Assembly (NCBI GenBank): GCA_963775425.1
Contig: CAVZJB010000011.1
Span: 992,001 to 1,056,000 of the forward strand
Source: an uncultured delta proteobacterium
Lineage (GTDB): Bacteria; Myxococcota; UBA727; VGSZ01
DNA length: 64,000 bases
Direction: 5' to 3'
The first letter of the stretch is position 1, and the number at the start of each line of letters is the position of its first letter. Below the pieces are notes generated by a model. That model made no database searches, was not told the DNA's origin, and was given only the letters and a program-made list of their open reading frames with translations. Made by a program: the position numbers and the translations under genes. This document shows, piece by piece, positions 7,763-44,104 of this stretch.

Positions 7763-7786
7763 GCGGGGGACAAGCCCCCGCCCTAC
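7763..7786 (-). repeat. GTAG-type REP element
   Basis: Minus strand reads GTAGGGCGGGGGCTTGTCCCCCGC: GTAG tetranucleotide followed by a perfect 7-bp GC-rich stem. Confidence 0.65.
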
Positions 7787-7796
7787 GGGTGGTCCG

Positions 7797-7912
7797 TGGA
7801 GCCGACGTCGCGAGTGGCACGTCGATGGAGCCGACGTCGCGAATGGCACGTCGATGGAGCCGACGTCGCGAATGGCACGTCGATGGAGCCGACGTCGCGA
7901 ATGGCACGTCGA
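7797..7912. repeat. Intergenic tandem repeat, 4 x 29 bp
   Basis: TGGAGCCGACGTCGCGA(A/G)TGGCACGTCGA at 7797, 7826, 7855, 7884, head-to-tail with no spacers. Confidence 0.95.
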
Positions 7913-31650: not shown

Positions 31651-33290
31651 CGGGCCCCCCCGGGCGAGCCGTCGACGTCGACGTCGACGGTGACGTCGCG
31701 CAGCTCCAGCGCGGTCGGCACCAGGCCCTTCACCTCGGGGGCCACCAGCGCGCCGCCCTTCGGGCCCGGCACGAAGTCCGACGCCCGCGAAAGCGTCGGC
31801 GCCAGCCCCGGCGGCAGCGCGCCGTCGAGGAGCGCGTCCACGGCGCCCGCCCGATACAGGTGCAGCGCCGTGGTCGGCCGCTTCACCCGGATCAGCTCCA
31901 CCCGCTCGACACCCGCGCGCTTTCGCTCGAACGACGTCGACGAGCGCGCGAGCTCGATGCGCTCGGGCTCGTGCAGCACCAGGCGGAAAGGTCCGCTCGT
32001 CGGCATCGCCTCCGGCACCGTCCACGCCCGCCCGAGCTCGTCTACGCTCCGCGGCGGGACCGGACGCATCACGGGCTCGGCGAACGCCAACAGCGCCTCG
32101 TCGAGCGGCGCCGCGAGCCCGATCTCGACCGTCTCGTCGTCGACGGCGTGGGCGTCCAACAGCCCCGGGTCGAACGCGAGGTCCTGCTCGGGCAGCCACG
32201 CGCGCGCCCCGGGATCGTCGACGCGCTCCACGAAGTACCAGCGGCGCTCGCGCACGGTGTCGTCGAGGTTCGCCGACGACAGCCAGCCCGAGATCCCCGT
32301 CTTCACGTCGATGGCGAGGCACGTCGGCGCCGCGGCGTCCGCGAAGCGGTCGTTGCCGCGCTCCACCACCTCCACGACGTCGTCGTCCGCGAGCAGCGCG
32401 CGCGCCGGCGCGTCCTCGTCGGGTCCCACGCGCAACGTCGGTGAGACGCCGCCGCGATCGACGACGTGCACGAGCCCCACCGCCGGGATGTGCACAGCGA
32501 CGTCGCTCGCCCGCGCCCACCCCGTGGCTCCGCCCGCCGCCCGCAACTGCACCAGCGTCACCGCCGGCTGCCTGCCGTGCCGCGGCAGCTCGCGCATGCC
32601 CGCCACCACCGCCGTCTCTCCGGCGAGCAGGGCGCCCACCGCCGGCGCGTCGAGGTCCGCCGTGGAATGAAGCGGCACCGCGACGCCACAGCAAGGGGTG
32701 CGCTCGTTGGTGTCGAACACGCGCACCGCGGTGCCGGCCGGGAGCTCCGCGTCGGAGACCACGGCCCCCGGCCCCTCGGTGAACACCGAGTAGGGCGCGG
32801 GCCTGCCGTGCGCGCCGCCGTGCGCCACGCGCAACAGCGCGCCGCGCGCGAGGTCGGCGCCGTTCTTGATCACCGACAGCGGCGTCGGGTCCGCCGTCCC
32901 CGTCGACGGGCGCAGGGCGCGTCGCCATGACCAGACCACCTCGGGCGCGCCGAGGTGCGTGTTGTCCGAGAAGCGCGCGTCCTTCTCCAGGTGCAGGCGC
33001 AGCCGGTCGCCGACCACCTCCCACGACGTCGCCAGCGAGGGGCGCGGCTCCCCGCCGGCAGGCTCCACGAGGGCCGCGAAGAGCTGTCGCGCGAGCGCGC
33101 GCTCCACCGGCGTCGTCGCGCGCGCGGGGTCGAGCTCGGCAACGTCGTCGACGATGTGCAGCCGCAGGCGATCCGTCCGCGCGCCCGCGCGCCCGAAGCG
33201 CTCGCCGGGCGCCAGGCCGCAGGCGACGACGGCGAGCGCGGCCAGGACGACACCGCAACGGGCGGGCCGGACGAGGGCAATGCGGCGCAT
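31647..33290 (-). CDS. Atypical family-5 solute-binding lipoprotein (OppA-like) with SH3-like insertions and truncated distal domain
   Basis: VVAC lipobox; ELDPA, PSLATSWE, DARFSD, VWSWRRAL; insert with SH3b-like patterns (LRVGP...LL....VEVVE, TGWAR..DV, SGWLS..NL); AVDDETVEI, TSGPFRL; ends soon after LYRAGAVD. Confidence 0.75.
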   Translation of the reverse strand: MRRIALVRPARCGVVLAALAVVACGLAPGERFGRAGARTDRLRLHIVDDVAELDPARATTPVERALARQLFAALVEPAGGEPRPSLATSWEVVGDRLRLHLEKDARFSDNTHLGAPEVVWSWRRALRPSTGTADPTPLSVIKNGADLARGALLRVAHGGAHGRPAPYSVFTEGPGAVVSDAELPAGTAVRVFDTNERTPCCGVAVPLHSTADLDAPAVGALLAGETAVVAGMRELPRHGRQPAVTLVQLRAAGGATGWARASDVAVHIPAVGLVHVVDRGGVSPTLRVGPDEDAPARALLADDDVVEVVERGNDRFADAAAPTCLAIDVKTGISGWLSSANLDDTVRERRWYFVERVDDPGARAWLPEQDLAFDPGLLDAHAVDDETVEIGLAAPLDEALLAFAEPVMRPVPPRSVDELGRAWTVPEAMPTSGPFRLVLHEPERIELARSSTSFERKRAGVERVELIRVKRPTTALHLYRAGAVDALLDGALPPGLAPTLSRASDFVPGPKGGALVAPEVKGLVPTALELRDVTVDVDVDGSPGGAR

Positions 33291-33422
33291 CTCCCCGGAG
33301 CATGCGTCGTCGACACGCCCCCGCACAACTCGACGGCCCGCACGGGGTAGAGTCGACGCCGACCGGAGGGAGCGGCGACGCTCACCGCCTTCGCAGGCGG
33401 CGCGTCGGGCCGCAGGTGATCG

Positions 33423-36400
33423 GTGATGAGGATTGCGACGTCGGCCATCCAGGAGCGCGATCGCGTCCTCGCGGACGCGCGGGCGCGCGTGCCTCGCCGC
33501 GGCGCGGGAAACGACGCCCGCATCGGAGACCTCCTCGACGTCGTGCACCGCGCCTTTGTCGCCACGCTCTCCGGCGCGGGTGTGCACCCGGGCACCGTCG
33601 ACGGGCTGCGCGGCAGCTTCGGGGCGGGCGCGCTCGTCGCCGGCGCGCAGGCGGTGGCCGACGCGCTGCGCGGCCTGGCCGAGAGCCTCGACGAGAGCCC
33701 GCCGGCGCTGCAGGCGGAGCGCGCGGCCATCAGCGACGCCCTCGACACGCTGCTCGGCCTGTTCGATCCCGACGGCGGCGATCTCCTCGACATCGACGTC
33801 GTCGAGGCGCGGCCGACGCTGGTGCAGGCGCTCTCGGAGCTCGCCAAGGGTCCGCCGTCGTCGCTCGAGGCCGCCGCCGTGCGCCCGCGTGCGCTCCTGC
33901 GCGTGCGCGCCGGGACCGCGGCCGCGGCGCGCGCGCTCGAGAGCGCGAGCATCGCGACGCTCGCCTCCACCGGCTTGCTCGCCCAGCCGAGCGCCCCCGA
34001 CGAGGCGCTCTTCGGCGCCGCCGGCGACGCCGCGGACGCCGTCGACCGCCTCGTGCGCGCCGCGGGCGTGCTGGCGGCGGGGGCGGGCGCGCACGCCGCG
34101 GAGCTCTGCTTCGCCGTCGTCGTCGTCGGCGACGAGCCCCCCGGGCCCGACGGCATCAGCGCCGTCGACGCCGTGGTGCGCGCGGGCGGGCTCCTCAGCG
34201 AGCCGGGGCTCCTCGCCCTCGACGCCGCCGCGTGGAGCGCCGCCGGCGCCGGCCTCGCGGCGGTGCCGGGCAAGCCGGGCATCGTCGAGCCCACGGCGGC
34301 GTTCGGGTACGACCGCTGGGAGCTGTCGACGCTGCTCGTGCGGCCGCGGCTCGTCGGCCGCGACGACGAGATTGGCCGCCTGACGCGGCTGTTGACGGAG
34401 CCGTCGGCCAACGACGCGCCGATGCTCGTGTCCATCCATGGGCCCGCGGGCATCGGCAAGACCTCGCTCGTGCGCGCCGCCCTGGCGGCGGCGGGGTTCG
34501 ACGACGACAGCGCGGCGGTCCTGTGGGGCGCGGCCGACGCGCTGTCGCCGACGCCGTACGCGGCGGTAGCGGCGATGCTGCGCGCGCTCGCCGGGGCGCC
34601 GGCGGGACTCAGCCGCGCCGCCGAGCGCGTGCGCCGCCTGCTCGAGGGGTTGGCCGCTCACCTGCCTGCGCGCGACGCGGCCGAGCTGGGCTCGCTGGTG
34701 CCCGTCGTCGTCACGCTGCTCGGCGCCGGCGACGACGACGCCACGGACCTCGACGACCGCGCGCCGCGCGCGCTCCGCACGGCGCTGCGCCGCGCGTTGC
34801 TCCTCGTCGCCGAGGGCCTGCTCGCCCGCGCGGACGACGAGCGCCCCGCCGTGTTCGTGGTGCCGGGCGCAGAGGCCGTCGACGGGCCCACGCGCGACGC
34901 GCTGGCGTTCACCGCGGCGCGCCTCGGGGGGCGCGCGCGGGTGGTGCTGTTGTCGTCGACGAAGGCGAAGCAGCCTCCGGGCTTCGAGAGCGGCTTTCGC
35001 GCGGAGCGCATGGAGCTCGGCGGGCTCTCGGCGGCGGTGGGGCGCGAGCTGTGCGGCCTGTTGCTCGATCGCCCCGGGCACGACGACGAGCTCGGCGCGC
35101 TCGTGGAGCGGGCGCGCGGCTCGCCGCTCGCGTTGATGCACGCGGTGCGCTTCGCCGTCGAGGGCGGCCTGTTGCGGCGCCGGGACAACCGCTGGGACGC
35201 CGGCGGCGTCGACGCGCGGGACATCCCGGCGCGCCTCGATCGCCTGCTGCGCGGGCGCGTCGAGCGGCTGCCGGTGCACGCCCGCCGGCTGCTGGCCGGG
35301 TGCGCGACCTTGGGGCTGACGCTGCTGCCGGCGGCGGTGGAGCTCGTCGGCGTGCGGCTCGGGCAGTCGCGGGACGAGGTGGCGCGCTCGCTGGCGTTCC
35401 TCGTCGACACGGGCTTCCTCGTGCGGACCTCGGTGCGGCCGGCGGCGCCGGTGTTCAAGGACGCCGTCGACGACGATCGGCCGCTGGCGTTCGAGCACCC
35501 GCTGTTGCGCGCGGCGGCCATCGCCGCCGTCGACGACGACGAGAAGCGCCGGCTGCACGCGTACGCCGCCGCCGCGCTCGAGGCGGTGGCGCCGTCGGGC
35601 GCGCAGGCGCTCGCGCCGGCGCTCGCGCGCCACCACCGGCTCGCGGGGAACGCCGACGACGCACGGGAGCGCCTGGCGGCGGCGGCGCGGCGCAGCGCGC
35701 GGCTCGACGACCGCCGCGGGGCGGCCGCGCTCGCGCGGGAGGGGCTCGCGCTGTGCGGCGACGATCCCGCGGCGTCGTTTCCGTTCTACCTGGAGCTGTG
35801 CGCCATCAAGGAGGACGGCTCGCGCGCGCAGCGGGACGCCCTGCGCGCGCTGGTCCGCTGCGCCGAGCGCTCCGGGGATCCGCGCCTGCGCGGCGAGGCG
35901 CTGATGCGCGTCGCCCGCTTCGACCTCGCCTCGGGCGACCTCGCGCTCGCCGAGAGCGCCGCCGCCGGCGCCGTCGCCGACCTCGCCCCCGACGTCGCTC
36001 CCGCCCTCGCCCCCGACCTCGCTGTCGCCCGCGCCCCCGCGGCGCCGCGCTCCTTGGAGGCCGGCACGCCGGACGCCCCCAGCGCGCCGCCGCGTGCGCC
36101 GCCGCCGCGCCCCCTCGAGGCCGGCGCGCCCGGGCGCAGAAAGCTCGCCCAGGCGCTGCGGCTCCTCGCGCTCGTGCGCTTCCACCGGCGCGACCTCGAG
36201 GGCGCCGCCGCGGCGCTCGCGGCGGCGCGGGCGTACACCCCGGCGAGCGACCGAAGGGGCCTCGCCGTCCTCGAGCACAACGAGGGGCTCGTGCTCCTCG
36301 AGCGCGGCGACGCGGTCGGCGCCGTCGAGCACCTCCTGGTCGCCCGCGCGCACCGCGTGGCCACCGCCGACGTCGCCGGCGAGGCCGCGTGCCTCGACGG

Positions 36401-37208
36401 CATCGCCGGCGCCTACGTCCGCCGCGGCCGCGCCGCCACCGCGCTGGCCCTCCTCGAAAACGCCGTGCGTCTGCGCGAGCGGATCGGAGACGGCGCCGGC
36501 CGCGCCTACTCGAAGCGCACCCAGGCCGACGTCCTGCTCACCGTCGGCGACGCGTCCGCCGCGTCCGCCGCCGCCGACGAAGCGCGCGCCCTCGCCAGGG
36601 AGCACGGCATCGATCGCCTCGAGGTCGGCGCCGCCCTCGCCGGCGTCCGCGCCCGCCTCGCCGCCGGCGAGGTCCAGGGCGCCGAAGCGCTCCTCGAGTC
36701 CGTCCGCCGTCGCGCGCGCGATCCGGCGGCGAGCGCCGAGGTCTGTCTGCTCGCGGCGCGCGTGCGCTTGTTGCGCGCCGCGTCGGCCACCGGCGCGGCG
36801 CGGGATCGGCTGTTGAAGACGGCGCTGTCGCGGGCGCAGGAGGCGGTCGCCCTCGGCGAGGAGCACGGCCTCGCCGCCGTCCAGGCCTGCGGCATGGCCG
36901 CCGCGGGCGAGGCCTTGCTCGAAAGCGGCGACAAGAACGGCGCGCTGACCTTTACGCAGCGCGCCGCGGAGCTCCTGGACGACGCCGGGGGCGCCCTCCC
37001 GCCCATCGAGGACGTCCTCGGCGCCTACGCCCGCGCCCTCGACGCCCTCGGCGACGAAGAGGAGGCCGCCGACGTCCGCTCCCGCGCCGCCGCGGCCCTC
37101 GACGAGCGCTGCGCCCGGCTCCCGCCCGCGGCGCGGGCCCGCTTCTGGGCGGCGCCGTCACGCGCTGCGTTGCGGGGTGAACGAGCGGACCCTGCGGGCG
37201 TGCGTTAG
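33423..37208 (+). CDS. Large STAND-type AAA ATPase-TPR protein with degenerate N-terminal region
   Basis: LVGRDDE, GPAGIGKTSL Walker A, ARGSPL, RVERLP, FEHPLLR, then TPR-like helices. Confidence 0.8.
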   Translation: MMRIATSAIQERDRVLADARARVPRRGAGNDARIGDLLDVVHRAFVATLSGAGVHPGTVDGLRGSFGAGALVAGAQAVADALRGLAESLDESPPALQAERAAISDALDTLLGLFDPDGGDLLDIDVVEARPTLVQALSELAKGPPSSLEAAAVRPRALLRVRAGTAAAARALESASIATLASTGLLAQPSAPDEALFGAAGDAADAVDRLVRAAGVLAAGAGAHAAELCFAVVVVGDEPPGPDGISAVDAVVRAGGLLSEPGLLALDAAAWSAAGAGLAAVPGKPGIVEPTAAFGYDRWELSTLLVRPRLVGRDDEIGRLTRLLTEPSANDAPMLVSIHGPAGIGKTSLVRAALAAAGFDDDSAAVLWGAADALSPTPYAAVAAMLRALAGAPAGLSRAAERVRRLLEGLAAHLPARDAAELGSLVPVVVTLLGAGDDDATDLDDRAPRALRTALRRALLLVAEGLLARADDERPAVFVVPGAEAVDGPTRDALAFTAARLGGRARVVLLSSTKAKQPPGFESGFRAERMELGGLSAAVGRELCGLLLDRPGHDDELGALVERARGSPLALMHAVRFAVEGGLLRRRDNRWDAGGVDARDIPARLDRLLRGRVERLPVHARRLLAGCATLGLTLLPAAVELVGVRLGQSRDEVARSLAFLVDTGFLVRTSVRPAAPVFKDAVDDDRPLAFEHPLLRAAAIAAVDDDEKRRLHAYAAAALEAVAPSGAQALAPALARHHRLAGNADDARERLAAAARRSARLDDRRGAAALAREGLALCGDDPAASFPFYLELCAIKEDGSRAQRDALRALVRCAERSGDPRLRGEALMRVARFDLASGDLALAESAAAGAVADLAPDVAPALAPDLAVARAPAAPRSLEAGTPDAPSAPPRAPPPRPLEAGAPGRRKLAQALRLLALVRFHRRDLEGAAAALAAARAYTPASDRRGLAVLEHNEGLVLLERGDAVGAVEHLLVARAHRVATADVAGEAACLDGIAGAYVRRGRAATALALLENAVRLRERIGDGAGRAYSKRTQADVLLTVGDASAASAAADEARALAREHGIDRLEVGAALAGVRARLAAGEVQGAEALLESVRRRARDPAASAEVCLLAARVRLLRAASATGAARDRLLKTALSRAQEAVALGEEHGLAAVQACGMAAAGEALLESGDKNGALTFTQRAAELLDDAGGALPPIEDVLGAYARALDALGDEEEAADVRSRAAAALDERCARLPPAARARFWAAPSRAALRGERADPAGVR

Positions 37209-37313
37209 TCTCGGATGTGACGGACGCAACTTCGTGCGGATCCCGTCGACAATGTGGGTGTCGCTCCTACGTGACCCCACCATGAGAGGCCCCAGGGTGG
37301 GGCCGGAGGCAGC

Positions 37314-38330
37314 ATGCGCTTGTTTTCGATCTTCGCTCTTTTGACCCTCGGGTCGACCGCCGCCCTGGCGCAGACCACGCCGCCGGCCGAATGGACGTGC
37401 ACGGCGAGCTTCTTCGGCAGCGACGACGGCTGCGACTGCGGGTGCGGAGCGCAGGATCCGGACTGCGCGGACAACACGGTCGCGTCCTGCGAGTTCAACC
37501 AGTGTCCGAACGACACCGAGGGCCCGACGACCGCCGACGCGACGCAGTGCGCCGCCGGCACCTGCGGCGACGGCATCAAGGACAAGGGCGAGACCTGCGA
37601 TGACGGCGACGCCGCCGCGGGCGGCGGCTGCTCCGCCGACTGCCAGACCGTCGAGGACGGCTCCACCTGCACCGTCGGCGCCGGCTGCCACACGAGCAAC
37701 ACCTGTGGTGACGGCTTCAAGGACCCCGACGAGGAGTGCGACGACGGCAACGCCACCGCGAACGACGGCTGCTCCGACACCTGCGCCGTCGAGGACGGCT
37801 TCGTCTGCGGCCACCACGCGCTCGGCGGCCCCTGCCATGCCGTGGTCTGCGGCGACGGCAACAAGGAAGGCGCCGAGGAGTGCGACGACGGCAACACCGC
37901 CGACGGCGACGGCTGCTCCTCCACCTGCACCCGCGAGGTGCCCGCGGGCTGGACCTGCGACGCCAGCTTCTTTGGCGCCGACGACGGCTGCGACTGCGGC
38001 TGCGGCGCCGTCGACACCGACTGCGCCAGCCCCGCGCTTGCCGACTGCGAGTTCGGCAGCGCTTGCGGCACCATCGACCAGGTCGATCCCAACGACACCA
38101 CCCAGTGCCTCGCCGGCGGCGAGGGTGAGGGCGAGGGCGAAGGCGAAGGCGAAGGCGAAGGCGAGGGCGAAGGCGACACCGGCGGCGAAGGCGAAGGCGA
38201 AGGCGACACCGGCGGCGGCGGCTGCTCCGGCATCGGCAGCGGCCACGCCGACGGCGCGCTCCCGTGGGCCGCGCTCGGCCTCGGCCTGCTCGGCGCCGCC
38301 ACGACCGTGCGCCGCCGTCGACGGCGCTGA
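37314..38330 (+). CDS. Myxococcus Cys-rich repeat (DUF4215) surface protein with GE repeat and MYXO-CTERM tail
   Basis: Three CGDG..E.CDDG...GCS..C repeats; two WTC.ASFFG.DDGCDCGCGA.D.DC modules; (GE)n; GGCS, TM helix, RRRRRR. Confidence 0.9.
   Translation: MRLFSIFALLTLGSTAALAQTTPPAEWTCTASFFGSDDGCDCGCGAQDPDCADNTVASCEFNQCPNDTEGPTTADATQCAAGTCGDGIKDKGETCDDGDAAAGGGCSADCQTVEDGSTCTVGAGCHTSNTCGDGFKDPDEECDDGNATANDGCSDTCAVEDGFVCGHHALGGPCHAVVCGDGNKEGAEECDDGNTADGDGCSSTCTREVPAGWTCDASFFGADDGCDCGCGAVDTDCASPALADCEFGSACGTIDQVDPNDTTQCLAGGEGEGEGEGEGEGEGEGEGDTGGEGEGEGDTGGGGCSGIGSGHADGALPWAALGLGLLGAATTVRRRRRR
38118..38204 (+). repeat. Coding hexamer repeat GGCGA(A/G) encoding (GE)n
   Basis: Runs of ggcgaa/ggcgag. 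Confidence 0.85.
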
Positions 38331-38355
38331 GCCGAAGGGCTAATGCGGCGCGTGC

Positions 38356-39312
38356 ATGCCTCGCACGCGCCGCATCGCCCTGGTGGGACATCCGCACGTC
38401 GTCGTGGCGCGCGGAAACAACGGCGAGCCCGTGTTCCACGACGACAGTGATTACGAGGCGTACCTGGGGCTGCTCCGCGACATGGTTCGGGAGCAGCTCT
38501 TCGTGCTTTATGCCTGGTGCTTGATGAAGAGCGAGGTGCGGCTCGTCATCTCGCCGCACCGCCTCCCGCTCGCCCAGGTGGTGCAGCGTCTGCACACCGC
38601 GCACGCGCGCCGCATCAACCAGCGCACCCGCCGCTCCGGCCACCTCTTCGAGGGGCGCTTTCGCTCCATGCTCATCCCGCGCGCGCGCATCGCCGACGCC
38701 GTCCGCTGGGTGCACCTGTGGCCCGTGCGCGTGGAGCGCGTGCGGCGCGCCGAGACCTATCCGTGGTCGAGCCACCGCAGCTACGTCGCGCGCGGCGACG
38801 AGTGGGGCGACCTCGTCGACGCCTGGGCCGTCCTCGAGACCTGGGGCGCGACGCTGCCTGCCGCCCAGCGCGGCTTCGGGCGCTTCGTCGAGCAGGCGGC
38901 GCTCGACGACGACGAGCTCGGCATCCGCGAGGTGATGGCCGGCGTCGGCGGCGACCGGCAGTTCGCCGAGGACGTGCTCGCCGAGGCCGGCGTCGTGTGG
39001 CGCGGGCGGCGGCGCCCGGCGCTGCAGACGCTCGCGCGGCGCGTCTCGCTCCTCATGAACGTCCACGTCGACGACCTCGTCAGCCCCGCACGCCAGCAGG
39101 AGCTCGTCATGGCCCGCCGGCTCCTGGCGACGAGCGCCGTGCGCGAGGCGGGCAGGTCCGTCACCGAGGTCGCGGACTTCCTCAAGCGCGACAAGGGGCA
39201 GGTCTCGCGCCTGGTGGCGCAGGGCATGTCGCAGATGCGCAGCGACCCCGCGTTCCGCGCGCTCCTCGGCGCCATGAAGCAGCGCGGGAACGTCGCCGCC
39301 ACCGTCGAGTGA
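38356..39312 (+). CDS. RAYT/IS200-like Y1 transposase-fold protein with C-terminal HTH; catalytic residues substituted
   Basis: MPR..R, ARGNN...F.DD.DY, YAWCLM, SGHLFEGRFRS, YPWSSHRSY; KSEVRL where NHxH is expected; WVHLWPVR where YIHLNPVR is expected; DnaA_C/TrpR-like HTH SVTEVADFLKRDKGQVSRLV. Confidence 0.8.
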   Translation: MPRTRRIALVGHPHVVVARGNNGEPVFHDDSDYEAYLGLLRDMVREQLFVLYAWCLMKSEVRLVISPHRLPLAQVVQRLHTAHARRINQRTRRSGHLFEGRFRSMLIPRARIADAVRWVHLWPVRVERVRRAETYPWSSHRSYVARGDEWGDLVDAWAVLETWGATLPAAQRGFGRFVEQAALDDDELGIREVMAGVGGDRQFAEDVLAEAGVVWRGRRRPALQTLARRVSLLMNVHVDDLVSPARQQELVMARRLLATSAVREAGRSVTEVADFLKRDKGQVSRLVAQGMSQMRSDPAFRALLGAMKQRGNVAATVE

Positions 39313-39431
39313 CGCCGACCTCGCGGTCGCTCCGCCGCGGCGGCGGCGGCAAACGCCTGAGAATGTCGCGCGCGCGACAAAGCCGCCGTCGCGCGGTGTG
39401 CGCGCGAGGTCCCGCGTCCTATCGAGGACGC

Positions 39432-40676
39432 ATGCCTCCCCGCACTTCCTCCGCGCGCGCCGCCCTCGACCTCGTCATCGGCGTCTCGCTGGCGCTGGCG
39501 GCGGCGGCGTGTGCGCCCGCCGACCCGAGCGACGATCCCGCCGACTGGGACGTGGACACGTCCGTCGCCTGGGAGCCCGCCGTCAGCGCCGCGCACTTCG
39601 TGGTGCCCTCGGACGCGCTGCCCGTCGTCACCAACGCGTCCAACAACAACGTCGCCATCGCGTTCTTCGAAGGGCGCCTGTTCCTCGCGTGGCGCACCGC
39701 GCCCACGCACTGGGCGTCCGACGCCACCGAGATGCACATCGTCTCGTCGGGCGACGGCGGCGTCACCTGGCAGGACGAGGCGTCCTTCTCGCTCGGCACC
39801 GACATGCGCGAGCCGCAGCTCTTCGTCGTCGACGGCGTGCTGCACTTCACGTGCTTTCAGGCGGGCACCAACACGTTCGCGTTCGAGCCGAAGCAGAAGT
39901 GGAAGAGCCGCCGCACGAGCGACGGCGCGTGGGCGGAGCTCGAGAAGTGGGGCGACGACCCCACCGAGGTGCCCTGGGAGATCAAGGTGCGCGGGGGCCG
40001 CGCGTTCATGACCTCGTACTCGGGCAACCACTACGGCTCCGGTCCGTCCGACGTGCGCGTCCACCTGAAGGTCTCGGACGACGGCGAGCGCTGGAGCGAC
40101 GTCGGCGCCGCCGACGTCTACGCCGGGGGCTGCTCGGAGGCAGGCTTCGAGATTGACGCCGACGGCTCCGCGTGGACCGTGCTGCGCAACGAGGACGGCG
40201 ACGACACCGGCTTCGGCTCGCTCGTGTGCCACGCGCCCGCGTCCGACCTGTCGGCGTGGGACTGCCCCGCCGCCGCCGACCCCGAGCGCTACGACTCGCC
40301 GCGGATGCTCCGGCACGGCGACGACATCTACCTCGTCGCCCGCCGCGACATCGACGGCCCCTTCGACGAGGGGCGGACGGACCTCGATCTGCAGCAGCAG
40401 CGCGACGTCTACGCCGCCGACTACTGGACGCGGCCCAAGCGCACGTCGCTGTATCGCATCGACAAGGCGCAGCGGAGGGTCGTCCGCGTCATGGACCTGC
40501 CGTCCGCGGGCGACACCGCCTTCGCCTCCATCCGCCGCACGGGACCGGACTCGTTCCTCGTCGCCAACTACACCTCGCCCGTCGACGACCCCAATCGCAC
40601 GTGGCTCGAAGGCCAGGGCGCGCCCGACGGTACGAGCATCTATCTCATCCAGCTCGTCTTCACGCCCTCCGGCTGA
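39432..40676 (+). CDS. Sialidase/BNR-like beta-propeller lipoprotein
   Basis: AAAC lipobox; Asp-box-like SGDGGVTW and SDDGERW; DMREP; SAGDTAF. Confidence 0.7.
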   Translation: MPPRTSSARAALDLVIGVSLALAAAACAPADPSDDPADWDVDTSVAWEPAVSAAHFVVPSDALPVVTNASNNNVAIAFFEGRLFLAWRTAPTHWASDATEMHIVSSGDGGVTWQDEASFSLGTDMREPQLFVVDGVLHFTCFQAGTNTFAFEPKQKWKSRRTSDGAWAELEKWGDDPTEVPWEIKVRGGRAFMTSYSGNHYGSGPSDVRVHLKVSDDGERWSDVGAADVYAGGCSEAGFEIDADGSAWTVLRNEDGDDTGFGSLVCHAPASDLSAWDCPAAADPERYDSPRMLRHGDDIYLVARRDIDGPFDEGRTDLDLQQQRDVYAADYWTRPKRTSLYRIDKAQRRVVRVMDLPSAGDTAFASIRRTGPDSFLVANYTSPVDDPNRTWLEGQGAPDGTSIYLIQLVFTPSG

Positions 40677-40791
40677 CACGGGCGAGTGGGAGGGTGTGCC
40701 CCGACGTGCGCCGGACGCGCGCGGCCGTCGTGGAGTAGCCTCGGTGGTTCCCCGCAGGGCGGGCTCGTGCCCGCTTCGAGGAGGCGCCAGG

Positions 40792-42438
40792 ATGAACCGC
40801 ATCGCCGTCGTCGTCGGCCTCGCTCTCGCTCCGCTGTCGTCATGCGACTGCCTCGGGCCGGCGGCGGCTCCGCCGCCCCCGACGCCGCCCGCGGTGAACA
40901 CCAATCCGCTCACCACGGCGCTGCCCAGTGAGGCGCGGCGGCTGTCGCAGGCGGAGATCGATCGCACGCTGCGTGACGTGTTGAAGGAGCCGTCGCAGGC
41001 GGGGTCGCGGCTGCTCGACACCGACAAATTCACGCCCTACGACAACGACTACACCGTGCAGCAGACGTCGGCGGCGCTCGTCGACTCGCTCGAGGCGCTC
41101 TCCGTCGACGTCGCCCAGCGCACGCTCGCCAACCCCGATTCGCGCGCGGCGGTCATCCCGTGCACGCCGGTGGCGCCCGACGACGCCGACTGCTTCCGCC
41201 AGGTGGTCACCACCGTCGGCAAGCGCATGCTGCGCCGCCCGCTCGACGCCGACGAGGTGGAGACGTACATGCCGCTGCTCGCGTACGCCACCGAGGAGAG
41301 CCCGTACTACGAGACCGGGTTCGACACGGCCGTCGAGGTCCTCCTGCGCGCGTTCCTCATGGACCCCGAGTTCCTCTACCGCATCGAGGCCGGCGTCCCC
41401 ACCGGCGAGGAGGGCGTGGTGCGCCTCACGCCGTACGAGATCGCGACGCGCATGAGCTACACGCTGTGGGGCTCGGCCCCGGACGACGCCCTGCTCGCCG
41501 AGGCCGACGCGGGCCGCCTCGACGACGCCGACGCGCGCAAGGCGTCCGCCGAGCGCATGTTGCAGGACGACAAGGCCAAGGAGCAGATGGAGCGCTTCCA
41601 CGCCATGTGGCTCGGCTACCGCGCCATCCCCACGCCGCCGGACCTCGCATCGCGCTTCGCGCAGGAGACCAACGCGCTGATCGACCGCGTCGTCTTCGAC
41701 GACAAGCGCGACTACCTCGACCTCTTCACGCTCGAGGAGACCTTCGTCGACGACACGCTCGCCGACCACTACGGCCTGCCGCACCCCGCGACGTCGCCGG
41801 AGCCGGGCTGGGTGAGCCTCGAGGGCACGCAGCGCGCCGGCATCCTGTCGCAGGGCGCGGTGCTCGCGAGCTTCTCCAAGTTCGCCGACACGAGCCCCAC
41901 GCAGCGCGGGATCCTCGTGCGCAACCGCCTGCTCTGCAAAAACATCGATCCGCCCCCGCCGGGCGTGAACGTCGATCAGCCGCCGCCGCCGGACGGCGAC
42001 GTCGTGTGCAAGGTCGATCGCTACAAGACGCACACGTCGTCACCGTCGTGCAACGCCTGCCACAGCCAGATGGATCCCATCGGCTTCGGCCTCGAGAACT
42101 ACGACATCGAGGGCCGCTTCCGCGAGCACGACGACGACAACCCCGACTGCGCCATCGACGGCGTCGGCGAGCTCCCCGGCTACGGGCAGTTCTCCGGGCC
42201 CAAGGAGCTCGCGCACCTGCTCGTGGACAACTCGCTCGTGGGCCCGTGCTTCGTGAAGCAGCTCACCTCGTACGAGGCCGGCCGCCCGCTCACGGACGAC
42301 GAGCAGAAGGTCGTCAACGCCTGGAACGACGACTTCGACGCCGCAGGACACAAGCTCGATCAATTGCTCGTCGATCAGATCGGCGGGGAGCAGTTCGCCA
42401 CCAAGAGAGAGCCCGCCGACGAGGGAGGTGCGCCATGA
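40792..42438 (+). CDS. DUF1592/DUF1588/DUF1595 (PSD/PSCyt) domain lipoprotein
   Basis: RRLS..E, RRPL, PEFLYR, YEIATRMSY.LW...PD, RAGIL.Q, TSPTQRG, CNACH..MDPIGFGLENYD. Confidence 0.88.
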   Translation: MNRIAVVVGLALAPLSSCDCLGPAAAPPPPTPPAVNTNPLTTALPSEARRLSQAEIDRTLRDVLKEPSQAGSRLLDTDKFTPYDNDYTVQQTSAALVDSLEALSVDVAQRTLANPDSRAAVIPCTPVAPDDADCFRQVVTTVGKRMLRRPLDADEVETYMPLLAYATEESPYYETGFDTAVEVLLRAFLMDPEFLYRIEAGVPTGEEGVVRLTPYEIATRMSYTLWGSAPDDALLAEADAGRLDDADARKASAERMLQDDKAKEQMERFHAMWLGYRAIPTPPDLASRFAQETNALIDRVVFDDKRDYLDLFTLEETFVDDTLADHYGLPHPATSPEPGWVSLEGTQRAGILSQGAVLASFSKFADTSPTQRGILVRNRLLCKNIDPPPPGVNVDQPPPPDGDVVCKVDRYKTHTSSPSCNACHSQMDPIGFGLENYDIEGRFREHDDDNPDCAIDGVGELPGYGQFSGPKELAHLLVDNSLVGPCFVKQLTSYEAGRPLTDDEQKVVNAWNDDFDAAGHKLDQLLVDQIGGEQFATKREPADEGGAP

Positions 42439-44104
42439 AGTCCCTGAAGCTTCGCCGTCGCACGTTCCTGCGGGGCGCCCTCGGCGCCGCCGTCGGCCTC
42501 CCCGTCCTCGAGTGCATGCTCGACGGAAACGGCAACCTCCTCGACCGCGCCCTCGGCGGCAAGGCGCGCGCGCAGTCCACCGGGATCCCGCGGCGCTACG
42601 GCATCGTGTTCGCCGGACAGGCCATCGGCGCCGACGGCACGCAGCGCAACAAGCAGCGCCTGAACGGCACCATCACCACCGAGGACGGGCACTTCATCGT
42701 CCCCGGCTCCACCGACGCAAACGGCGACTTCATCGCCGACACCAGCGGCTCGCTCGCGCCGGGCGGCGCGGTGCCCACGCCGCTGTTGCCGCTGCAGGCG
42801 GCGGGGCTCCTGGGCGACGTGTCGCTCGTCTCCGGGCTCGCCATCCCCTGGGTGCGCGGCGGCACCTTTGCCTCGGACGGCAGCGACGTGCCGCCCGGCG
42901 GCGCGTTCCGCGACTTCCACGGCGGCGGCGCGAGCCCGCTGTTGTCCGGCGTGCGTTCGCGCTCGTCGTCGTTCACGGCGCAAGGCGCGACGTCCGATCA
43001 GATCGTGGCGGCGCTGTCGGCGGCGGAGACGCCCACGTTCCCGAACGGCCTGGTGCTGCGAGCGCAGCCGAGCTTCTACCTGTCGGGCTTCGACTTCGCC
43101 GGCCGCGAGTTCATCTCGTACACGAGCGCGGGCAACGGCGGGCGCATCGCGGCGCAGACCAACCCGCGGGTGGCGTGGAATTCGCTGTTCTCCGGCTTCG
43201 TCCCCGACGACGCCGCGGCGGCGGCCATCCAGGACTTCACGCAGCGCAAGCGCATCAGCGTGCTCGACCTCGTCACCGCCAAGCGCGAGCGCATCCTGTC
43301 CAAGGTGGGCGCGGCCGACAAGATCCGGCTCGGCGCGCACTTCGATCAACTGCGCGCGCTCGAGCAGCGCATCCAGGCCATCCCGCCGCCGACGACGGGG
43401 ACGTGTCAGCCGCTGCCGGACCCCGGCGATCCGCCGGGCGTCGGCGGCGACAACAACGGCAGCGGCTTCGACCCCAACGACCCCACCAACCAGATCGGGC
43501 AGAACACCGGGTTCTCGGGCGAGGACGTGCGCACGCAGGTGATGGTGGACCTCATCCACATGGCCTTCGTCTGCGACCTCACGCGCACGGCCACGCTGCA
43601 GATCACCGCGTTCCAGTCGCACATGAACGTGCGCGCCATCGTGCCGACCGTGCAATCGCTCATCGGCCGCAGCGACGTCGACATCCGCGCCGACATCCAC
43701 GAAAACGGCCACAACGGCGACCCGGACAACAAGGGGCAGCTCCACGTGAGCGGCGTGCTCGCTTGGCACCTGTCGTTCTACGCGCGGCTGCTGCAGAAGC
43801 TGAAGGACACACCGGAGGGGGCGGGCAACGTGCTCGACAACACGTGCCTCGTGTTCATGCCCGAGGCCGGTCACGGCACGCAGCTCAACGACGACACCTC
43901 ACCGTTCGCCACGCACTCCGTCGAGGACATGGTGCTCCTCGTCGGCGGCCGCGCCGGCGGGCTCGCGCCGGGGCGCCACATCAGCACGCTGGGCGCGGCG
44001 ACGCCGGTGCACCCGGCGCAGGTGCTGCTCGCCTGCATGCAGTCCGCAGGGTTCACCGGTGACACCTTCGGCGAGGTGAGCGGCGCCTTCGGCGGTGTGT
44101 TCGG

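Follow-up and report, generated by a model that had tools for sequence, protein, structure and literature searches.

The Y1 HUH fold is a four-stranded sheet with the nucleophile helix lying on it, and among bacterial transposases that carry it the RAYTs are the textbook example of domestication. To our knowledge, the RAYTs described so far keep an intact active site. Here we analyze an open reading frame (ORF) at positions 38356..39312 on the forward strand of a 64,000-nucleotide stretch of DNA, the window, from an uncultured delta proteobacterium of the phylum Myxococcota. Its predicted product of 318 amino acids combines a RAYT-like Y1 domain, in which the catalytic residues are replaced, with a C-terminal helix-turn-helix (HTH) domain resembling domain IV of DnaA. 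The domestication of this dead Y1 gene is well supported by the comparison with its relatives, and we consider it probable that the protein as a whole, derived from a TIRYT-type Y1 transposase, was domesticated without its cutting activity and acts as a DNA binder and likely as a regulator of a core process.

RAYTs have been described as domesticated (Bertels et al. 2017). According to Messing et al. (2012, PMC3479197), the E. coli protein TnpA_REP is flanked by repetitive extragenic palindromic (REP) sequences and cuts REP DNA with Mn2+, and its active site comprises Y115, H59-M60-H61, N119, H123 and E161. In Quentin et al. (2018, PMC6006769), the TnpA_REP-like subclass 2.1.2, characterized by a C-terminal Bac_DnaA_C-like HTH, is equated with the TIRYTs of Di Nocera et al. 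(2013, PMC3733652), and sequences without the HuH and Y motifs were dropped as probably non-functional, which kept 722 of 924. The TldR proteins, finally, are described as nuclease-dead, TnpB-derived, RNA-guided transcription factors (PMC10705468).

The ORF begins with ATG and runs to its stop codon, which the end coordinate includes, without internal stops; it is separated by 25 nt from the stop of the preceding gene and by 119 nt from the next gene. Its N-terminus, MPR-x-RRI, is also found in orthologs, and this conservation confirms the start. A preliminary description of the window, made from its letters alone, had proposed a protein that follows the RAYT/IS200 pattern throughout, free of stops and frameshifts, and the translation bears this out: the frame is uninterrupted over its 318 codons, and every named motif is present, namely ARGNN (aa 18-22), YAWCLM (52-57), GHLFEGRF (95-102) and YPWSS (135-139), together with the altered KSEVRL (58-63) and WVHLWP (118-123). 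When PDB sequences were searched with a profile of the aligned family, none matched at E <= 0.01, so that the link to solved structures came only from fold comparison, that is from a Foldseek search of the PDB with a predicted AlphaFold2 (AF2) model built from 114 relatives (mean predicted local distance difference test, pLDDT, 89.1; predicted template modelling score, pTM, 0.66). The N-terminal domain of the model matched E. coli TnpA_REP on its REP hairpin (4er8_A; E 2.7e-5, TM(target) 0.73, 151 columns), with further matches to the ISDra2, IS608 and IS200 transposases, and the C-terminal domain matched DnaA DNA-binding domains on DnaA-box DNA (3pvp_B and 1j1v_A; TM 0.88, root mean square deviation 1.3 Å, about 90 columns), in agreement with the intact HTH of the preliminary description. 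Together with a weak match to Pfam Y1_Tnp (PF01797; aa 17-104, E 2.9e-5, 24.6 bits against a cut-off of 23), the fold comparison indicates that the protein adopts the Y1 HUH fold of the RAYTs. The region between the two domains is predicted to form helices at residues 156-160, 167-179 and 201-210, with pLDDT falling to 56 near residues 211-220, and holds motifs that are conserved in the family consensus. A homodimer prediction with two copies and the alignment returned 'no answer' with a score of 0.00.

A word-indexed search for related proteins gave 125 matches at E <= 1e-3, and full-length relatives with identities of 41-87% account for about 117 of these. Metagenomes are the source of nearly all, and the named ones are labelled 'transposase' or 'RayT' of Myxococcota or Deltaproteobacteria metagenome-assembled genomes (MAGs). 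The family alignment comprises 114 of the 120 listed proteins, with the truncated P0076, P0077, P0110 and P0118 and the distant, HUH-bearing P0119 and P0120 omitted. A profile search of 1.84 billion cluster representatives then yielded 33,482 proteins at E <= 1e-3, of which 771 passed E <= 1e-30; the best 150 were examined. Here the profile score dropped from 288 bits for the weakest full-length member (P0127) to 203 bits for a fragment of 185 aa (P0128) and 195 bits for the best protein with both HUH and Tyr (P0129). An alignment of 149 rows, made of the query and 148 of these best 150 representatives (fragments P0110 and P0118 omitted), contained 128 rows with both H-x-H and Tyr, four lacking only the HUH motif (one of them a fragment), three lacking only the Tyr, and 14 with neither; the latter include the query, six full-length or nearly full-length family representatives and two fragments that are gapped at the HUH columns.

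The 128 rows served as the set of active relatives with the same architecture; as they were chosen for H-x-H and Tyr, both of these are present by selection. The Asn four residues past the Tyr is found in 128 of 128, the N-terminal His of the 'Y-H-V' strand in all 119 ungapped rows, and the Gln of G-H-L-F-Q-G-R-F in 115 of 128. At these positions the window protein has E60-V61-R62 for H-u-H, W118 for the Tyr, W122 for the Asn, V15 for the N-terminal His and E99 for the Gln, and outside the active site G-H-L-F, R101, H120-L, P123 and Y-P-W-S-S-H are kept in the window protein and the active relatives alike. The preliminary description had thus read the HUH motif, the nucleophile helix and the N-terminal His position correctly, and the same replacements extend through the family. 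At the position of the first His of H-u-H, residue 60, the 114 family rows have Glu (110) or Ala (4), and at that of the second, residue 62, they have Arg without exception. The former nucleophile position 118 is occupied by W in 49 rows, S in 42, N in 8, A in 6, G in 4, D in 2 and by Tyr in only 3, and position 122, that of the metal-binding Asn, is W in 109 rows and Asn in none. Position 15 is V (52), L (41) or I (15) where the active relatives have His, and one residue earlier His is present in 108 of 108 ungapped rows where active relatives mostly have Tyr, which makes H14 specific to the family. The two sequence hallmarks of a RAYT, H-u-H and Y-x-x-x-N, are therefore absent from a protein that retains the fold. 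Free variation at position 118 beside an invariant Arg and a near-invariant Glu is what we would expect of a site that lost catalysis and gained a structural role.

The same pocket could also be read as that of an enzyme with a newly formed active site, built for example from H14, E60 and H120 with Y135, Y143 or S138/S139 as the nucleophile and acting on DNA or another phosphodiester. H14, E60, R62, H120, S139 and Y135/Y143 are indeed invariant or nearly so, and H14 is specific to the family. However, Y135, Y143, S138/S139, H96 and H120 are equally conserved in the active relatives and are therefore not new acquisitions; five or six active-site positions were changed together, both metal-binding His, the Asn and the Tyr among them; and position 118 is free to vary, with a bulky Trp standing in for the Asn. 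We consider a new enzyme of this kind very unlikely.

The relationships within the group were studied with FastTree in a tree of 152 rows, for which 14 family members were sampled and combined with the 138 representatives that reach 270 aa or more. The family members and P0121, P0122, P0125, P0126, P0127 and P0147 form a single clade of 20 rows (Shimodaira-Hasegawa-like support 100), none of which has HUH and Tyr; note that P0147 is flagged as a long branch and its placement is unsure. The stem of this clade is the longest internal branch of the tree, with 0.95 substitutions per site against a median of 0.12, and the remaining 132 rows share the same architecture, 121 of them with HUH and Tyr. 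As judged from alignments and tree, replacement of the entire active site goes back to a single ancestor within an uncultured order of Myxococcota. Additional inactive representatives, without HUH and/or Tyr, are found outside the family clade: a group of four (P0143, P0235, P0160 and P0222) and the singletons P0267, P0185 and P0150. Since these sit among active ones, catalysis was probably lost several times in the group of transposases that combine Y1 and DnaA_C domains.

One alternative is that the window carries an isolated transposase allele, inactivated only recently and decaying into a pseudogene. The public annotation of relatives as 'transposase' or 'RayT' and the weak Pfam and NCBIfam scores would fit such a view, as would the verdict of Quentin et al. 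(2018) that Y1 proteins without the HuH and Y motifs are probably non-functional. It is contradicted by the occurrence of the same substitutions in all 114 relatives down to 41% identity, close homologs keeping neither H-x-H (0 of 114) nor, with three exceptions, the Tyr, and also by the mode of selection. For six pairs within the genus, the Nei-Gojobori method (NG86) gave omega values of 0.058-0.122 at dS 0.27-0.98, and a codon model (GY+F3X4+G4; 25 orthologs, 291 codons) gave 0.087 across the tree, far from the value near 1 expected of a decaying copy; the reading frames are intact in all 25 orthologs used. In every one of the 21 pairs formed by seven genomes, conservation of the dead Y1 protein exceeded that of the adjacent alanine racemase and fell short of that of the adjacent acyltransferase. 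Across the order, whose genomes measure about 1.3 to 8 Mb, G+C content in the 223-nt upstream flanks spans 26% to 78%, yet the C-terminal domain is nearly unchanged. Purifying selection on the dead Y1 gene is strong.

The distribution of the gene points in the same direction. The genome to which the window belongs (8.26 Mb in 18 contigs, 94.6% complete) holds one copy. We scanned the family profile over 301 genomes of the phylum, 38 in the same order and 263 outside it, the unpublished G195 entering only the latter count. Within the order, 29 of 38 genomes gave a full-length match of at least 288 bits, always one per genome; among genomes with a completeness of 90% or more, the figure is 21 of 24. 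Among the 263 genomes outside the order the best match was partial, at 139 bits, and canonical Y1 genes there gave up to 7 matches per genome. Identity to the query tracks kinship, with 69-77% within the family of the host and 36-50% in other families of the order. All 22 named records found in the species-genome collection are uncultured MAGs. One ortholog-bearing contig (locus L055) was deposited as 'Methanobacteriota archaeon' and probably represents a mislabelled or contaminated bin; the other 21 records are labelled Myxococcota, Myxococcales, Myxococcaceae, Deltaproteobacteria or, in one case, just 'bacterium'.

Gene order was compared between 17 loci, each spanning about 17 kb. Family f6, whose genomes are small (about 1.3-3.4 Mb), has the acyltransferase divergently upstream at 8 loci and the alanine racemase directly downstream on the same strand at 7, in the vicinity of GMP-reductase/IMPDH-type, Trp/Tyr-tRNA-synthetase, FtsK and carB-like genes. 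At three loci (L027, L028 and L033) the dead Y1 gene ends in a TGA stop that runs straight into the conserved beginning of the alanine racemase, in what looks like a 4-nt GTGA stop/start overlap, and this arrangement suggests translational coupling of the two genes. Syntenic orthologs with the same substitutions, for which the preliminary description had proposed to look, thus exist as single copies in a conserved, partly housekeeping context. An inverted-repeat search over 37800-39900 revealed nothing beyond G+C-rich arms with 70-85% complementarity, and these pairs were rejected as transposon ends because they are chance-like. The gene is hence vertically inherited, present once per genome, under strong purifying selection and devoid of transposon ends. 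The family-wide loss of the active site, the omega values and the one-copy distribution across an order refute the pseudogene, whose probability we put at practically nil. The features of the locus are summarized in Table 1.

Table 1. Coordinates of features at the dead Y1 locus and of related elements; positions are those of the window unless another locus is named.
Feature	Position	Strand	Evidence
Dead Y1/RAYT-like protein gene, 318 aa, with C-terminal DnaA-domain-IV-like HTH	38356..39312	+	ORF list, Pfam, NCBIfam, AF2
Dead Y1 (HUH-fold) domain, ~aa 1-145	38356..38790	+	Foldseek 4er8_A, Pfam Y1_Tnp
H14-V15	38395..38400	+	Alignments of the family and active relatives
E60-V61-R62, former H-u-H metal-binding motif	38533..38541	+	Sequence, alignments
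W118-V-H-L-W122-P, former Y-x-x-x-N-P nucleophile helix	38707..38724	+	Alignments
Helical middle region linking both domains, ~aa 146-222	38791..39021	+	AF2 secondary structure, family consensus
DnaA-domain-IV-like HTH domain, ~aa 223-309	39022..39282	+	Foldseek, Pfam, alignment with the genome's own DnaA
Putative recognition helix R278-D-K-G-Q-V-S-R-L-V-A-Q-G290	39187..39225	+	Family alignment, the genome's own DnaA
STAND-type NTPase, 1261 aa (AAA_16 + TPR), upstream	33423..37208	+	Pfam
GTAG REP copies at the Y1 locus of contig C18	L038 1008-1032 and 1352-1376		

The functional interpretation of the protein depends largely on its C-terminal domain. In an alignment of 24 family members and two active relatives, 25 of the 26 rows matched Bac_DnaA_C at E <= 0.01. 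Residues K280, Q282, S284, R285, L286, V287, Q289 and G290 of the putative recognition helix are invariant in 114 of 114 family rows, and the same positions vary widely among the active relatives. The R-D-H-T-T-V stretch of the genome's own DnaA aligns with R-D-K-G-Q-V-S-R-L-V in the window protein and with R-D-K-[AG]-Q-[VI] in the family. In E. coli DnaA, the His and Thr residues of this stretch contact the bases of the DnaA box.

In the mechanism that we propose, the HTH would bind one fixed double-stranded DNA motif, because the recognition helix does not vary within the family but does so among the active relatives; where active TIRYTs would each match their own ends, the dead family would be locked onto a single target. 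This motif would probably be other than the DnaA box, as the putative base-contact residues differ from those of DnaA, taking the contacts to be as in the E. coli protein. Without catalysis, the disabled Y1 domain would probably act either as a clamp for single-stranded or hairpin DNA or as a structural or partner-binding module; it contains the conserved arginines R3, R6, R62, R93, R101, R117, R125, R130 and R131, and its old metal pocket would be filled by the conserved Glu-Arg pair (E60/R62) packing against the Trp residues of the former nucleophile helix (W118/W122). The most likely role would be that of a sequence-specific transcriptional or chromosomal regulator, or of an architectural factor, in a core process, since the gene stays among housekeeping genes even in genomes of 1.3-2.5 Mb. 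That the protein binds DNA and acts in regulation is what we infer on these grounds. The preliminary description had likewise suggested exaptation as a binding regulator, and the core of that proposal, the domestication, holds on the grounds of family-wide loss, omega and synteny; its second part, a protein that would bind hairpins, single-stranded DNA or promoters, stays a proposal, for which neither the locus nor the ortholog flanks revealed a target site, operator or relic transposon end.

Several observations weigh against this interpretation of the dead Y1 protein as a DNA-binding regulator. The match of the window protein itself to Bac_DnaA_C is weak (aa 227-284, E 2.2e-4) and with 21.6 bits stays under the cut-off of 31.5, so that the Pfam comparison proposed in the preliminary description came out divided, Y1_Tnp passing its cut-off and Bac_DnaA_C falling short; in NCBIfam, REP_Tyr_transpos (NF047646) reaches 40.2 bits, under the equivalog cut-off of 80. 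For distant pairs NG86 omega rises to 0.27-0.37, values obtained where dS has reached saturation or is compressed under G+C bias. Nine of the 38 genomes in the order, three of them at least 90% complete, yielded no copy of the gene, which is therefore not universally required. As its neighbours in the large genomes of the order are not those in the small ones, the context names no pathway. A search of the 220-nt upstream and downstream flanks of 17 orthologs for a shared operator or relic terminal inverted repeat (TIR), using 9-mers with one mismatch and shuffled controls, retained no motif: the best words occurred in 7 of 17 upstream flanks (shuffled maximum 6-7) and 8 of 17 downstream flanks (shuffled maximum 6-7), where the downstream flank of several small-genome loci is alanine-racemase coding sequence. 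Finally, the invariant polar residues H14, E60, R62 and H120 could in principle form a new active site.

The likeness to DnaA raises the question of a role at the replication origin, where the HTH might compete with DnaA at DnaA boxes or assist it, with the Y1 domain holding unwound single-stranded DNA. In the predicted model the HTH superposes on box-bound DnaA domains with a TM of 0.88, the R-D and the Val of R-D-H-T-T-V are kept, and the gene is retained in reduced genomes; a targeting of the replication fork by the DnaA-like domain was also speculated upon by Quentin et al. (PMC6006769). On the other hand, the His and Thr of the DnaA stretch, the presumed base contacts, are replaced by K-[AG]-Q, and the gene does not lie beside dnaA in its own genome, being located on contig C11 with dnaA on C14. 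An origin role thus appears unlikely. A broader proposal would make the protein a two-handed reader of DNA and a core chromosomal factor throughout the order, whose frozen HTH reads a double-stranded motif while the dead HUH domain clamps single-stranded or hairpin DNA, so as to sense or stabilize unwound DNA at sites of replication, transcription or recombination, the same conversion having been repeated elsewhere. This we put forward tentatively, as a minority view that is more doubtful than the regulator described above.

The preliminary description had further suggested a connection to a REP hairpin at 7763-7786 of the window. This element does exist. Its core, 7765-7786 (G000:C11:999765-999786), reads on the other strand as a GTAG-tagged REP, and with up to two mismatches allowed the genome contains this 22-nt core 161 times (71 forward, 90 reverse), against none for the reversed control. 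The nearest copy lies about 30 kb from the dead Y1 gene and no hairpin family flanking the gene was found at the locus, as had been stated beforehand, and copies instead flank the two other Y1_Tnp genes of the genome (C18:22803-23069 and C3:259587-259844). The gene on contig C18 (L038 724-1941, +) keeps D-H-V-H-L and has I-R-C-V-L-E-N-P for Y-x-x-x-N-P, with Cys instead of the Tyr; the one on contig C3 (L039 1048-2070, +) keeps D-H-V-H-V and has no recognisable Tyr helix. From these sequences the REP-associated transposases of the genome may be impaired as well. Short tandem repeats on a 'gagccgacgtcgcgaa(t/c)gg'-type unit were noted beside REP copies, in the window at 7790-7860 and in L038 at 1030-1300, upstream of the C18 Y1 gene, and may together with the REP form a composite array resembling REP/bacterial interspersed mosaic elements (BIMEs).

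A genome with so many REP copies and two further REP-flanked Y1 genes might employ the dead protein as a REP- or hairpin-binding factor, for instance as a competitor unable to cut, which would repress the mobilisation of REPs or organise their arrays, all the more as REP hairpins are a ligand of the Y1 fold in TnpA_REP (Messing et al. 2012, PMC3479197). However, 40 relatives, most of which carry the dead gene, hold only 0-9 copies of the GTAG REP, so that it looks like a genus-level expansion. All 21 genomes of family f6 have none, a count that refers to the GTAG family as other REP families were not searched for there, and 14 of these 21 carry the dead Y1 gene, which is therefore not tied to the GTAG REP family; in the small genomes G015, G019, G020, G022 and G031 it is the sole match for the query. 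With no GTAG REP within about 30 kb of the gene in addition, the suggested tie did not hold, and we judge a REP-bound function highly improbable.

Closer to the gene, a perfect 16-nt palindrome at 39364-39379 lies in the 119-nt gap downstream. It was rejected as a dispersed site, as it occurs once in the genome, with one more site at one mismatch, and the reversed control gave the same count; it may be a local operator or the stem of a terminator. Among RNA families, Rfam gave over 33000-43000 only one sub-threshold chance match, mir-598, with 29 bits against a gathering score of 69.

In the large-genome families the gene has different company. A STAND-type NTPase is encoded upstream on the same strand at 4 of 5 loci (the window, L022, L024 and L025, with L023 as the exception), and at L024 and L025 it abuts the dead Y1 gene. 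In the window this protein matches Pfam AAA_16 at 8.7e-16, with TPR_12 and nSTAND1 under their cut-offs, and no DNA-binding domain was detected in it by Pfam; it could be a signalling partner of the HTH protein. Between the two genes, in this genome only, 37314-38330 (+) encodes a cysteine-rich DUF4215 repeat protein that has a stretch rich in (Gly-Glu)n and, at its C-terminus, a hydrophobic segment closed by six arginines, a terminus that we take to resemble a MYXO-CTERM-type sorting tail. The downstream ORF at 39432-40676 (+) encodes 414 aa with a signal-peptide-like N-terminus and has no Pfam match at E <= 0.001; a homolog is found downstream of the ortholog at L022 only.

A full-text search of the literature, supplements excluded, did not find a conserved, catalytically dead Y1/RAYT family described; note that the sequences excluded by Quentin et al. 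(2018), which are listed in its additional files, could hold members. As the catalytic centre is replaced and the gene is nevertheless housekeeping-like, its benefit to the host cannot be DNA cleavage, and the family offers a clean system in which to ask what a Y1 fold and a DnaA-type HTH do besides cutting. It also means that what surveys based on the HuH motif discard as 'non-functional' includes a strongly selected family, and that 'transposase' or 'RayT' labels on dead genes are misleading for censuses of mobile elements in MAGs. Should the conversion indeed have been repeated, an unrecognised class of bacterial DNA-binding proteins would at present be annotated as 'transposases'.

Among the known systems, TldR is comparable by analogy only: in both cases proteins from IS200/IS605-type elements appear to be kept by the host without catalysis, apparently for DNA binding. 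The proteins are unrelated, however, TnpB having a RuvC fold and a guide RNA where the dead Y1 protein has an HUH fold and an HTH, and at this locus Rfam detected no RNA family above threshold and the intergenic gaps measure just 25 and 119 nt. With domain IV of DnaA (PDB 1J1V, 3PVP) the protein shares the fold of its C-terminal domain, and a conserved Arg, an Ala-Arg and R-D...V align with the genome's own DnaA, whereas the AAA+ and other DnaA domains are absent and H-T-T is replaced by K-[AG]-Q; the full-length DnaA model TIGR00362 accordingly scores 18.6 bits against a cut-off of 343.9, and at C-terminal positions only. E. coli TnpA_REP (RAYT, YafM; PDB 4ER8) resembles it in the predicted fold of the N-terminal domain and in being a single-copy gene kept by its host, but retains Y115, H59/H61, N119 and H123, none of which the dead protein has at the aligned motif positions, and the dead protein lacks flanking REP sequences and possesses an additional HTH domain.

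The likeness is greatest with the TIRYTs, or subclass 2.1.2. Both have the two-domain architecture, a length of about 310-320 aa and the motifs G-H-L-F-x-G-R-F, H-L-x-P and Y-P-W-S-S-H, and the next-best profile matches of the family are of this type (128 of 149 aligned rows with HUH and Tyr), where the assignment of these relatives to subclass 2.1.2 is by architecture and not by the sequence list of Quentin et al. The dead family differs in the replacement of every catalytic residue, in flanks where searches revealed no terminal inverted repeats and in a frozen recognition helix, and it is present in one copy per genome, specific to an order, vertically inherited and set apart by a long stem branch. 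As the HuH, Tyr and TIR features fail, we do not file it as a functional TIRYT member. In architecture and, from sequence comparison, in ancestry, the TIRYTs of subclass 2.1.2 are nonetheless its closest known group.

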